A stretch of DNA of 64,000 nucleotides from Candidatus Oxydemutatoraceae bacterium (GTDB lineage: Bacteria > Pseudomonadota > Gammaproteobacteria > Poriferisulfidales > Oxydemutatoraceae), in contig CBDCOZ010000003.1 of the NCBI GenBank assembly GCA_965220085.1, positions 1,696,001 to 1,760,000 of the forward strand. The letters run 5' to 3'. Each line of letters begins with the position of its first letter. Position 1 is the first letter of the stretch. Shown here one piece after another: positions 5,799 through 23,460 of this stretch. Under the pieces are notes generated by a model. The model worked only from the letters and a program-made list of their open reading frames with translations. It did not search any database and had not been told where the DNA came from. Made by a program: the position numbers and the translations under genes.

Positions 5799-6750
5799 TT
5801 ACCGCAACGGGCCTTCAAGGAAGAGCCGCAACCGCAAACGCACGGGGCGCATCGGGTCTATGCCGAAGGTCAGCGTATCGGTCTCCCTATCCGCATCGGT
5901 GGCGGTGAGGGTGTATTCGGCGGCAGCGGATTCCGCCATGGGTGTGCCGCTGATGGTGCGGGTGTCGGCATCAAAGGTCAGGCCGTCGGGCAGAGCCGGG
6001 GCGACTGTATAGGTGATGGGGCCATTGCCGCCGGTGACTGCGGGCAATATCAGAGGCGCGGTCGTGCCGGGCGGCCAAATACGGGTGCCCGCCGTTGCAT
6101 CGCCAAAATCGGGCGCGCTGTTTGCCACCAGATTGACGGTCACGGTGCCCGTGGTATGGCTGCCACCGACATGTAACTCAAAGATGAAGCTGTCATAACC
6201 GTTGACGACAGAGATGGCAGTAATCGGGGGCCTGTATTCGACGGGTCCGACTCCGGCGGAGAAGTCACTCGCGACATATGTGCTTAGCTGACCGCCACCT
6301 CCGCTTGAAAGCGACACGTCTCGCTGAGGTATGGTATCAAACAACCTGCCATGAGCGGGTCGGGTTTGGAACAACAGTGTTTGGGAGACAAAACCGCCGA
6401 TATCTGTTTTCCTGAGCGCATATCCGCTGCTTCCAATAGCGACATCAATGCTGGTGTCCGAGGCTTGAGCGTTGGCCTGTGTCGCGCCCAATGCCAAGCA
6501 CAGGGCCGGCAGGCAGCGCATGAGCGAACCCGACCGCAACCCGGCGACCGGGCGCACCGCAACAGACCGCAGCCACAGCAACAAACCGCGCACAACCGGG
6601 CGGCGCGACCGCTTTGCGGATGGCGGGTTGCTATGCGCGGGTGATAAAGAACGGGTGAAAAGGCGATACGGCGAAACGCCGGCAATCCCCTTACTTACAA
6701 AGCTGCGGGGGGGGGGGGGGGGGGGTCAGTATTAAATTTTTTCTGTTCAT
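5799..6750 (-). CDS. LEGPLR-family secreted protein, paralog 3, frameshifted at C19 tract (putative phase OFF)
   Basis: ATG at 6750 gives MNRKNLILTPPPPPP then a stop at 6691. The frame of ORF 5799..6593 is open back to the tract and would be joined at C18. An internal start (MRCLPALCLALGATQANA) is also possible. Confidence 0.75.
6707..6725 (-). repeat. poly-C (C19 on coding strand) homopolymer in leader-coding region
   Basis: 19 G counted on + strand. Confidence 0.9.
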
Positions 6751-6960
6751 GGTATTACTCTTAAATGGCAATCTGCATCTCGCGAATGCAGTTGCGTAAT
6801 CAATGCCGGTACTCTGCCACACAGCGCGAGTCATGTGCAAGCGCCTGTTTGATGCCATGAATCCGGAATGTTTCCGGCATGATTCAAACGCCTTGCCTGA
6901 GAGAAACAAGATGACTTCGCTATGACCCGCCGCCCGCTGTGAATGCCCATTCGTTCCGAC

Positions 6961-7902
6961 TCAGTAGTACTTGCTCAAATCCATGCCGGCATACATTGCG
7001 CCGACTTCTTCGGCATAACCGTTGAACATCAGCGTTTTGCGTTTCGCAAATTCGCCGATACGGCGCTCTCTTTTTTGCGACCACCGCGGGTGATTGACTT
7101 GCGGATTGACGTTAGAGTAAAAACCATACTCCGACGGCGCCGAACGCCCCCACGATGTGGGCGGCTGCTCCGCGGTAAATTTGATCTCAACAATGGACTT
7201 GATGCTTTTGAAGCCGTATTTCCACGGCACGACCAAACGCAACGGCGCGCCATTCTGATTGGGCAACACTTCGCCATACAAACCCACCGCCAAAATCGTC
7301 AGCGGATTCATCGCCTCATCCATGCGCAGGCCTTCGCGGTACGGCCAGTCCAGCACCCGCCGCGCTTGTCCCGGCAGGTTCTTGTCAACAATGGTGGTCA
7401 TCGCAACATACTTGGCGCCGGACAAAGGCTGGCTGCGCTTGATTATTTCGGCCAACTCAAAACCGACCCACGGGATGACCATAGACCACGCTTCCACACA
7501 ACGCAGGCGGTAAATCCTGTCTTCCAACTTATGCGGTTTGACGAAATCCTCAATCGCATATTGTCCCGGCTTCTCACACAGACCCGATACCCGCACAGTC
7601 CACGGATCTGTCTTCAGATGATGGGCGTTCTTGTGCGGATCCGCTTTGCCGGTGCCGAGCTCATAAAAATTGTTATACGTTGTGACGCTATCGTATGGCG
7701 TCAATTCTTCATCGGTGTTGAAACGGCTATCCGGCAAGTCGCCGAACTTCTTTGGCAAAGCGGCGGGCGCCGCGCTTGCAAACGCCATACCGGCAAATGC
7801 TCCGACCCCGTTCTTGATAAACGCGCGCCGCTCGGCATAAACCGATTGCGGCGTAATCTCAGACGATTGTATTGATAGTTTTGTACGACTTTTTATTAGC
7901 AT
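6961..7902 (-). CDS. msrP: protein-methionine-sulfoxide reductase catalytic subunit MsrP
   Basis: Tat motif [38 protein letters not shown]. Confidence 0.96.
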
Positions 7903-8070
7903 GGCGCCTCCCTCAATTGATTTATAACATTCTGAAAATAACCCTTGTTGAAATTGTCAAATCATAAGAATGCATTGATTATATACTAGCGGAACAGCAT
8001 GCCCTCAAAGACCGGCATATATCCGCGCCGGGGCTATTCTCGCGCGGCGGGCGGCGCCGACCGAAAGCCG

Positions 8071-8499
8071 CTAACTGCGCTCGCATATCTCCTCATCCTT
8101 AAAGAAAAACCCAATCTCAGCACGGGCGGTATCCGCCCCGTCGGAACCGTGTACCGCATTGGCCTCGATGCTGCGGGCGAAATCGGCGCGGATGGTGCCC
8201 GCCGCCGCCTTGGCCGGGTCCGTATCCCCCATCAATTCGCGATTCTTCATGATCGCATTCTCCCCTTCAAGCGCCTGTGCCATGATCGGCCCCGAAGTCA
8301 TGAACTTGACCAGTTCTTCATAGAAGGGGCGATCTTTGTGCACCGCATAAAACTTCCCCGCTTGCTCTTCGGTCAAATGCAACATCTTCGCCGCAACGAT
8401 ATGCAACCCGGCCTGTTCAAACCGCGCGTAAATTTTCCCGATCAGGTCTTTTTCAACCGCATCGGGTTTGATAATGGATAATGTTCGTTCGCTTGCCAT
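8071..8499 (-). CDS. ndk: nucleoside diphosphate kinase
   Basis: [12 protein letters not shown]...NAVHGSD. Confidence 0.99.
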
Positions 8500-21547: not shown

Positions 21548-21714
21548 CGCGAGCGCCGCCTCGCAGGATTTGCGCCTAGCACGCTCCCTCGCGGGAAGCG
21601 TATCGGGAGGCCGAAAAGCAGATAGACAAAGGGGAAGCCCTGGCCTGCTTTCAAAAAGCCCTCGCATCCTGATATAATGAGACTTATGCAAACAACCAAC
21701 TTACAAACTTAATA

Positions 21715-21915
21715 ATGGACGATTTATACAGAAACACTACGACCGCGATGGAAGAAGCCGGAGCGGACTCGGATTACATAATCGGATGGCAAGGAGGTTA
21801 CCTCGGTCATCCCGCCCGTGAAAAACAGCGCGCATCGGAAGCCTATCTTGCGGGATATGCCGACGGACAGGAAAAGAACACTGCCAACTACGAGAAATGG
21901 GCTGACAACAAATGA
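21715..21915 (+). CDS. Alvin_2107-like protein, duplicate
   Basis: Protein identical to 19202..19402. Confidence 0.7.
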   Translation: MDDLYRNTTTAMEEAGADSDYIIGWQGGYLGHPAREKQRASEAYLAGYADGQEKNTANYEKWADNK

Positions 21916-22133
21916 ACCCGCCCGCTTCAAACAGACCTCCGGATTGCCATTGCGATGACAACAGCGCGAGTACCGCGCGGCGGAGAAAGAAAGTGTCAGA
22001 GGGAACGCAAGAGGTGCGACAGGATACGAAGTCACTTGCAAGTGACGCGCACTGTGTGGCAGGCTACGGCACTAAGAGTAGCAACACGCATTGCATAAAC
22101 ATTCGCTAAACACGAACCATGAGGAGAGAGACT

Positions 22134-23460
22134 ATGAAACGAGAGCCTTTTAATACCCCCCCCCCCCCGGCGCAGGAGCCTGCACCACTTATGGTCGCTG
22201 GCACTGCTCGCCCTTTTCATCTTATCCACCCAGGCCCAACCGCACAGCAACCACGCTCCCGACAGCCCGGTTGTTCTGGGTCTGATTAAGCCGAACGCCA
22301 GCAATAAAAATGTATGGGTGTTGCCCACTGCCACCGCCGACAGCCCGTACACTTTCAAGACGAACGACTTTCCTTTTTTTGACCGTGACGGCGATACCCT
22401 GACCAGGGTCACCATAAAGAGCCTGCCATCCGCCGGAACCATGCTGGTGGACGGTTCCGCCGCCACTCAGGGGCAGAATGTGGCAACCGCCGACATCGGC
22501 ACCATCAAATACTATCCGGCACCGGGACAGTCCGCACAGGCCAACTACGCCAGCTTCACATTCAGCGTCACGGCTGGCGGTCAGGAATCCGGCAATGGCA
22601 CAATCACCATCAATCTTATCGCAACCGAGCAAGTCCCAGCCACCGGCTCGCTCGCACTATTTCTACTGCACGGCAGCGATACAAGCGCATTAGATGAGGA
22701 TACGCCATTAGAGGAGGATATACCATTAGGCATATCAGGTTTTTTCAGCATTGTCGACCTCAACACCATACCTAGCGGCGCACTGACAAGCCTCAAATTT
22801 AAATGGCAACAATCCGCCACCCGGGGCGGCCAATTCACAGACATCACTGATACCAGTCTCGGAAACCCCAATTTCACCCCTCTGCAAATCCATGTGGGCA
22901 CATACATACGCGGCTGTGTCGTCTTTCTGGACGGACATGCCACCCCCAACCTTGAGACGGTGTGCTCCGCAGCTGGTCAGGTAACGAATAGAGGCGACCA
23001 GCCCGTGGGCGGCCCCAGCACTGTTAAGGTGCCAACTAATGCCATACCCACTAAGCCGCACCGCTTTGCGCGGACGGACTTTCCCTTTTCCGATGAGGAT
23101 GGCGACACCATCAATGGCATTCGCATAACCGCCCCGCCCACCAGAGGCACCCTGGTGGTGCGGGCGGGCGATTCCAGCACCGCCATAGCCATAGGCGCCG
23201 AGCTGACCCTGGCCCAGATGAATGCCCTGGCATACTATCCGGAACCCAATGCCCCCGCTGGTGCGGGCTATGCGACATTCACATACAGAGTGCGGGATAC
23301 TGGCACTGTAAGCACCCAGGTCTTAAGATGCATAGGGACTGATTGCAGTCAATATGCTGGCAGCACCAACGAGGCCGACACCGATTCCACCCTCACCATA
23401 GACCTGATAAACACAATCCGCCTGCGGTTGCGCGTTTTCCTTGAGGGGCCGTTGCGGTAG
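22134..23460 (+). CDS. LEGPLR-family secreted protein, paralog 5, frameshifted at C13 tract (putative phase OFF)
   Basis: ATG at 22134 gives MKREPFNTPPP; the +1 frame RRRSLHHLWSLALLALFILSTQAQ leads into ORF 22318; ends IRLRLRVFLEGPLR. Confidence 0.85.
22156..22168 (+). repeat. poly-C (C13) in signal-peptide coding region
   Basis: 13 C counted. Confidence 0.9.

Follow-up and report, generated by a model that had tools for sequence, protein, structure and literature searches.

A stretch of 64,000 nucleotides (nt) from a Candidatus Oxydemutatoraceae bacterium (contig CBDCOZ010000003.1), referred to below as the window, contains six paralogous genes, three of which have a long run of C a few codons after the start codon. 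In each of these three, the start codon is one base out of frame with the long coding sequence behind the run. The question raised by this locus is whether such genes are broken, miscalled or able to switch. The reading that we considered likely to be correct is translational phase variation by slipped-strand mispairing within the part that codes for the signal peptide, and random ON/OFF switching of a large set of surface proteins is probable in this bacterium.

Poly-C tracts and paralogs in the window

The only homopolymers of at least 9 nt in the window were three poly-C tracts (G19/C19, C19 and C13), and 0 of 100 dinucleotide-preserving shuffles produced a C13 run. The tracts were located as follows.

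6707-6725, minus strand: poly-C tract 1, G19 on the forward strand and C19 on the coding strand
19643-19661, plus strand: poly-C tract 2, C19, crossed without a gap by a Logan contig of sequence run X1
22156-22168, plus strand: poly-C tract 3, C13, also crossed without a gap by a Logan contig of run X1

The six paralogs were organized as follows.

3406-4524, minus strand: paralog 1, intact; begins MKRQISNTAPRRWRTALTRLSL, with AATACCGCCCCT where the tract would be
4816-5622, minus strand: paralog 2, intact; begins MKRQISNTTPRRLRTALTRLSL, with AATACTACCCCCC (C6) where the tract would be
5799-6750, minus strand: paralog 3, +1 out of frame; ATG at 6750, leader MNRKNLILT, C19, an extension of about 80 residues, signal peptide MRCLPALCLALGATQANAQA, He_PIG domain and tail RLRLRLFLEGPLR
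19621-21547, plus strand: paralog 4, +1 out of frame; leader MKRESFNT, C19, signal peptide LNGRATLTRFSLRSLILPTLFVICAQAQS, about six beta-sandwich domains of immunoglobulin (Ig)/cadherin-like type and tail
22134-23460, plus strand: paralog 5, +1 out of frame; leader MKREPFNT, C13, signal peptide RRRSLHHLWSLALLALFILSTQAQ, Big_9 Ig-like domain and tail
34306-36528, minus strand: paralog 6, intact; begins MNCQISDTTVAQQRATRIRWSLW, without a tract

The lengths and coordinates given for the three tracts in the original prediction were exact, and the starts that it had placed 7-8 codons before them were found as leader ATGs at 6750, 19621 and 22134, with the tracts 25, 22 and 22 nt downstream. A Shine-Dalgarno-like GAGGAG stood just 5' of the ATG in paralogs 4 and 5. 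In paralogs 3, 4 and 5, respectively, the frame of the ATG ended soon past the tract (19, 23 and 51 codons in total), and the sole long open frame past the tract was the +1 frame relative to the ATG (301, 627 and 429 codons). One C fewer (C18, C18 and C12) would join the ATG to this open frame in all three, as had been claimed. On translation, the fused frame of paralogs 4 and 5 led directly to the full signal peptide that had been predicted for them, while the fused frame of paralog 3 passed through the extension before reaching its signal peptide.

All three runs reached the length of about 8 or more that characterizes homopolymeric contingency loci, and their placement was of the same kind, with a leader ATG reading into the tract and a single frame open downstream. 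The tract lay within the signal-peptide coding region, as in pilC-type genes; it followed the MKRxxFNT leader and preceded the basic and hydrophobic segments of the signal peptide. In a DNA alignment of the six leaders, the three intact paralogs matched the switched ones base for base and had AATACCGCCCCT, AATACTACCCCCC and GATACGACCGTC in the aligned position of the tract, with the leader in frame with the signal peptide; these are the short or interrupted forms that the original prediction had described. It had also called three genes OFF and three locked ON. The frames were as said; OFF and ON describe consensus lengths, however, and "locked" holds only relatively, because paralog 2 keeps C6. 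No Rfam family was found within 3000-37000 of the window. A promoter scan detected nothing near the leaders; its single site lay about 455 nt 5' of paralog 5.

All six proteins had the same C-terminal end (...RLRLRLFLEGPLR). Pfam matches above the curated cut-off were obtained for four of the six (He_PIG in three, Big_9 Ig-like in one); the Ig/cadherin-like matches of paralog 6 were all sub-threshold, and paralog 4 had no Pfam match at all. The AlphaFold model of paralog 4, built from 48 aligned sequences, was an all-beta chain of beta-sandwiches with a disordered tail and a mean predicted local distance difference test score of 87.3. Its top Foldseek matches were the S-layer protein SbsB, protocadherins and an RTX adhesin repeat, with E values of about 1e-10 and low template modelling scores, as expected because multi-domain chains are flexible. 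Tandem beta-sandwiches after a Sec signal peptide, the arrangement of Ig-like/cadherin-like extracellular repeat proteins, were thus found, and the window paralogs are secreted or surface, adhesin-like proteins.

In NCBIfam, the window paralogs gave sub-threshold matches only, to ZirU and tandem-95. Membership of the ZirU family (NF040485) was rejected: against a cut-off of 100 bits, paralog 1 scored 22.6 and paralog 6 scored 28.3, and the other four gave no match. A type Va autotransporter was also rejected, the beta-domain PF03797, a C-terminal barrel of 12 strands, being present in 0 of the six window proteins. The protein search with paralog 4 returned no external protein above 50% identity, hence no orthologue for a tract comparison; of its 27 external homologues (at most 50% identity), 8 carried PF03797, that is, ended in an autotransporter barrel.

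A conserved stretch of 70-80 residues (..SKGIAGVSPYRL..SPAHxNPPSAKRSRRP..) was observed between tract and signal peptide in paralog 3 (5799-6707) and at about 15 similar loci. It had no match to Pfam ESPR, and it stayed in frame in tract-less paralogs too.

The tract-bearing family in the genome and in related genomes

The genome (2.49 Mb in 3 contigs, 55.8% G+C) contained 90 C/G runs of 9-28 nt, with a median of 19, and 81 of them were at least 13 nt long; runs of A and of T reached 9 nt only once each (one A9, one T9). The long C/G tracts of this genome are not a product of chance. With every run oriented as poly-C before scoring, an open reading frame (ORF) of at least 150 amino acids (aa) followed the tract at 88 of the 90 runs. 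These open frames spanned 150-4215 aa, and the second-best frame was mostly shorter than 40 aa. An ORF with the FLEG.L tail followed the tract at 82 of the 90. The original prediction was therefore right about the three loci in the window and too low in scale, since the genome holds about 88.

The usual leader was ATGAA...TTTAATACTA-C(n), with T at position -2 in 76 and A at position -1 in 65 of the 88 loci. Where a nearby ATG seemed to be missing, the leader was longer, being either duplicated or a 45-codon MICNMTPNSF... frame. The latter formed a second leader class, whose frame of about 45 codons (M-I/T-x-N-M-T-P-N-S-F...FNAAQ...) ran into the tract (contig C3: 1239442, 1241571, 1244757, 1296542-1304868 and 168307); in the third class the leader was duplicated, the first tract decayed and the second live (e.g. 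C3:582816 and C1:132883). At C3:1968993, C3:582816 and C3:773749, upstream ATGs were present in two frames, one being MLIL at 12 nt and the other the ATG of the usual leader or of the longer, duplicated one, so two of the three phases could yield a product there. The same is reported for the lic loci of H. influenzae.

Counting every ATG-started frame that entered a tract made 87 of the 88 loci scoreable. Of these, 22 were in frame (ON), 41 were +1 and 24 were +2 (chi-square p 0.023 against equal thirds). The observation in the original prediction that all three window tracts were one base out was correct and is not special, because, with 41 of 87 tracts at +1, the probability that all three are +1 is about 0.1.

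These states bear on the alternative of leaky or "fuzzy" expression, in which RNA polymerase or the ribosome slips on long runs and produces a constant in-frame fraction, so that the tract is an attenuator and not a binary switch. Transcriptional slippage on long homopolymers is known, chiefly on A/T runs; transcription slips less on C/G than on A/T runs. The near-random states (22/41/24) would fit this alternative, as if the DNA frame were neutral, but drifting contingency loci give near-random states too, according to an excerpt of a Campylobacter study (PMC6321876). Also in favour of leaky expression, the tracts (median 19, maximum 28) far exceed the 9-10 nt typical in Campylobacter in the same excerpt (PMC6321876). 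Leaky expression leaves the exact in-frame fusion of tract-less paralogs unexplained, and we regard it as unlikely, although it is the strongest of the alternatives.

The superfamily defined by the tail comprised 186 ORFs of at least 150 aa and occupied 488,673 nt, or 19.6% of the genome. A tract was present in 83 (171-988 aa) and absent from 103, among them every giant, the largest having 15,193 aa. The genome also contained fragments of 15-50 aa that consisted of the tail alone, some of them in tandem. On contig C3 the GC skew had its minimum near 0.1 Mb and its maximum near 1.25 Mb; 44 of 76 tract-bearing and 61 of 82 tract-less family members were co-oriented with replication on this contig.

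In 37 of the 103 tract-less members (at least 150 aa), the leader M..F(N/D)T was fused in frame via T-A/T-P-R/H. By this comparison the tract looks like an expanded proline codon. Existing gene calls on the genome included in-frame polyproline forms such as MKQKTYNTTPPPPPPPHQRARL..., and elongation factor P, which is needed for translating proline runs, was present.

One might read the frameshifted copies as pseudogenes that decay within a redundant family, given that 65 of 87 scoreable loci were out of frame, that the family is very large and that tail fragments occur. However, all 88 downstream frames were open over their 150-4215 aa, and 82 of the 90 runs led to the conserved tail. In nine paralog pairs the ratio of nonsynonymous to synonymous substitutions (dN/dS) was 0.41-0.93. 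Five OFF/OFF pairs had synonymous divergences (dS) of 0.12-0.83 (0.12-0.49 in the four closer pairs) over 321-873 aligned codons, with zero stops and dN/dS mostly below 1. The OFF copies are thus not dead genes by their substitution patterns, their only "broken" site being the one that can revert, and we consider decay a very improbable explanation.

The polynucleotide phosphorylase of the window matched those of metagenome-assembled genomes (MAGs) of Candidatus Oxydemutator sp. (70%), uncultured candidatus Porisulfidus sp. (68%) and Candidatus Oxydemutatoraceae bacterium (65%). Runs of C12 or longer were found in 15 of 18 relatives in one family (f1) and 11 of 11 in a second (f2), but in 0 of 10 in a third (f3, in which genomes measure about 1 Mb) and 0 of 1 in a fourth (f4). 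Long C tracts are accordingly common to two families of the lineage (26 of 29 relatives).

Five relatives had 8-45 runs of at least 14 nt each, and 74 runs of at least 12 nt were sampled from these five for an ORF check. Behind 34 of the 74 tracts a C-sense ORF of at least 150 aa was found; an ATG frame entered the tract in all 34, and the start was signal-peptide-like in 21. The 25 scoreable frame states were 8/9/8. At 7 of the 74 the long ORF was in the G sense only, and 2 lay at locus edges. In one relative (G022, loci L114-L133), about 18 poly-C runs lay in a repeated element with conserved flanks (one frame MREDDEA.RSAAR..) and without a long ORF in the fetched stretch, which covered 300 nt on the other side. 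The extreme runs in relatives were C70 (L029, G008) and C39 (L018, G022). The MKRQIFNT leader and the tail were seen only in the bacterium's own genome, both in a family-alignment scan of genome contigs and among the sampled tracts of the five relatives. In that scan the tail pattern matched 30 stretches, 0 of which were confirmed against paralog 2.

Tract length, tract boundary and the proposed switch

Tract lengths were compared between paralogs of this one genome. Among 15 locus pairs whose 100-nt upstream flanks were at least 90% identical, the tract length differed in 12; two pairs with 100% identical 100-nt flanks had 13 versus 19 and 17 versus 19 nt. The closest pair had C13 and C19, with identities of 96.8% and 94.4% in the 250-nt flanks on the two sides. 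Interrupted runs, e.g. C19-T-CCCC-T, lay beside live tracts, a pattern of decay by point mutation. Judged from these paralogs, tract length appears to change faster than the flanks. An excerpt of a meningococcal study describes homopolymers of at least 8 nt as mostly variable within single colonies (PMC5084427).

The stretch was found in three sequence runs of one study, namely X1 and X2, represented by contigs with minor variants dropped, and X3, which is raw Hi-C Illumina; no RNA run was among those listed. The Logan contigs of X1 reproduced C19 at 19643 and C13 at 22156 without gaps, and X1 covered a share of 0.98 of the stretch; it may be the source of the window's own assembly, so its agreement is not independent. 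In X2, contigs had extra C's between tract and flank, and about 16 paralogs share this flank, so no locus could be assigned. In X3 (about 1 in 100 reads sampled), 1721 reads were placed, 1701 of them only partially, as a poly-G/poly-C pile-up on the two 19-nt runs with no depth elsewhere. A search of metagenome contigs for the leader motif plus C9 returned 28 matches, none of them related (27 without a BLAST match to the genome, one 72% over 166 nt elsewhere).

The depth of exact-match X1 Logan contigs over 19128-23469 was 22.7-31.5 across most of paralogs 4-5 and 60.7 over the piece 19128-19585 of the module upstream of paralog 4; over the housekeeping stretch 7195-19157 it was 40.7. This contrast may reflect variant haplotypes or a repeat effect.

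Sequencers miscall long homopolymers, and the true lengths might be fixed and in frame, giving proteins with polyproline linkers, the frameshifts being errors of the consensus. The over-representation of the +1 state (41 of 87) speaks for this, as does the fact that X1, the only near-complete holder of the stretch, may be the source sample. Against it, no one offset puts all loci in frame (22 at 0, 41 at +1, 24 at +2), the X1 contigs repeat both tract lengths gap-free, and in-frame polyproline forms coexist with out-of-frame loci in one consensus. We consider a consensus artefact improbable.

The tract of paralogs 4 and 5 also marks the end of a shared upstream module.

19085-19642, plus strand: upstream module of paralog 4, near-identical to 21598-22155, the likeness ending exactly at the tract
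21598-22155, plus strand: copy of the module upstream of paralog 5, in which 21650-21678 resembles a promoter (TTCAAA-17-TATAAT, the second hexamer preceded by TG)

The two copies of this module of about 560 nt shared about 100% identity distally and 92% over the final 75 nt before the tract, and the module took in the last 75 nt or so of the upstream housekeeping gene, which is ybiB/trpD-like (17993-19159). From the first base past the tract, paralogs 4 and 5 were unrelated. Ten locus pairs in the genome had at least 90% upstream identity over 250 nt; downstream, six of them dropped below 70%, three of these to 51% or less. Since upstream likeness ends at the tract, the tract is also a recombination or duplication boundary.

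It could accordingly be proposed that the tract functions chiefly as a joint for recombination, or as a DNA structure with a G-rich template strand, and marks swaps of promoter-leader modules, with frame switching as a side effect. The mosaic of paralogs 4 and 5 and the downstream loss of likeness in the ten pairs are in favour of this, but duplication or gene conversion that ends where homology ends yields the same pattern, and a joint explains neither the leader ATG nor the single open frame. The chance of this proposal is small, slightly below that of the artefact.

Slipped-strand switching, as put forward in the original prediction, was supported by the observed anatomy of the loci (leader ATG with GAGGAG, single open frame), the in-frame fusion of tract-less paralogs, the spread of frame states, the upkeep of the OFF ORFs and the tract-length differences between paralogs. 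In the proposed mechanism, each gene would encode an Ig/cadherin-like protein, secreted or on the surface, and the tract would be a hypermutable homopolymer inside the part that codes for its signal peptide. Translation would start at the leader ATG (M-K/N-R-Q-x-F-N-T), the C run would be read as Thr followed by a string of prolines, and the signal peptide would be reached only if the run length is right modulo 3; in either of the other phases, translation would end after about 19-51 codons. Replication slippage on 13-28 C's would gain or lose bases far more often than ordinary mutation, and about 88 genes, each flipping ON and OFF independently, would yield a population with many surface-protein sets. 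From these features we infer a high slippage rate, reversibility, population heterogeneity and a benefit to the organism.

Several points weigh against this mechanism. More than one length at one locus was seen in no reads and in no second sample, so population heterogeneity is inferred. The lengths are those of an assembly consensus, in which such long runs are error-prone, and single ON/OFF calls rest on it; systematic miscalling might account for part of the +1 excess. Just 19 of the 88 loci had an in-frame ATG after the tract and before the hydrophobic core, and there it might permit tract-independent initiation; the other 69 are translatable only from the upstream start. RNA polymerase slippage on such long runs could make the OFF state leaky. 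Behind 31 of the 74 tracts of relatives there was no long ORF in the stretch fetched, mostly at loci of G022, where the other side extended for only 300 nt. Finally, mutS and mutL were intact, so the instability is not attributable to loss of mismatch repair; mutS and mutL are intact in Neisseria as well.

A wider interpretation is offered tentatively. This symbiont-type bacterium might possess one of the largest homopolymer phasomes yet seen, with about 88 independently switching genes of one superfamily that takes up a fifth of the genome. The tract might be both a frame switch and a universal joint that brings promoter-leader modules onto new bodies; the mosaic of paralogs 4 and 5 stops exactly there. 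Such a lineage-wide strategy of surface variation, present in two families, would serve in an animal host without adaptive immunity, where phage or host phagocytes would be the likely selective agents.

Comparison with known phase-variable systems

Random ON/OFF switching of surface proteins is a textbook feature of pathogens that face antibodies. Here the same device is met in an uncultured marine gammaproteobacterium, the closest named relatives of which are symbiont-type MAGs, on an unusual scale, with unusually long tracts and in one superfamily. A full-text literature search found, among the matches listed, no paper joining sponge symbionts with homopolymer phase variation. If the switching is real, it offers a concrete way to study surface variation of these bacteria within a host. 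There are practical warnings as well: gene callers truncate or mis-start most tract genes, and assemblies of relatives include contigs that start at such runs.

The closest counterpart in design is Neisseria pilC1/pilC2, in which a poly-G run in the signal-peptide coding region, changed by slipped-strand mispairing, sets the synthesis of an export protein through its length modulo 3. The loci described here share with pilC a homopolymer soon after the start codon, within the leader, whose length modulo 3 is decisive. Gardnerella NanH3, a poly-C system, is placed beside pilC here. Unlike both, with one or two loci, the present genome has about 88; the runs are 13-28 nt long, the proteins are unrelated Ig/cadherin-like arrays, and they belong to an uncultured gammaproteobacterium of marine or sponge type, not to a human pathogen.

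In Neisseria opa, about 11 paralogs each have CTCTT repeats in the leader; they switch independently and give a combinatorial display. The present family is similar in that each tract-bearing paralog of a surface-protein family has its own repeat in the signal-peptide coding region. It differs in having a homopolymer and not a pentamer, in being about eight times larger (83 tract-bearing ORFs), in its different fold and in its share of the genome.

Phase-variable autotransporters with homopolymeric tracts in the coding sequence, NalP and MspA, are described for N. meningitidis in an excerpt of PMC3723659. As there, a homopolymer in the coding sequence would switch a secreted or surface protein, and the external homologues of paralog 4 include PF03797 autotransporters; unlike NalP and MspA, the six window proteins have no beta-barrel domain and end in a 13-residue Arg/Leu tail.

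With respect to whole phasomes, the excerpt of the Campylobacter study gives 5-81 phase-variable genes per strain, with a median of 20 in C. jejuni, and tract lengths that peak at 9 (53%) and 10 (26%), with 13-15 rare (PMC6321876); that of the meningococcal study gives 59 variable G/C tract clusters across genomes (PMC5084427). As far as these excerpts go, the present system resembles both in its many poly-G/C loci, mostly in ORFs, and in states near the expectation for drift (PMC6321876; PMC5084427). In Campylobacter and N. meningitidis, however, the loci are spread over lipooligosaccharide, capsule, restriction-modification and receptor genes, whereas here 88 loci with a median tract of 19 nt lie in one 2.49-Mb genome and belong to one protein superfamily. 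This genome exceeds the published poly-G/C phasomes in both the number and the length of its tracts.

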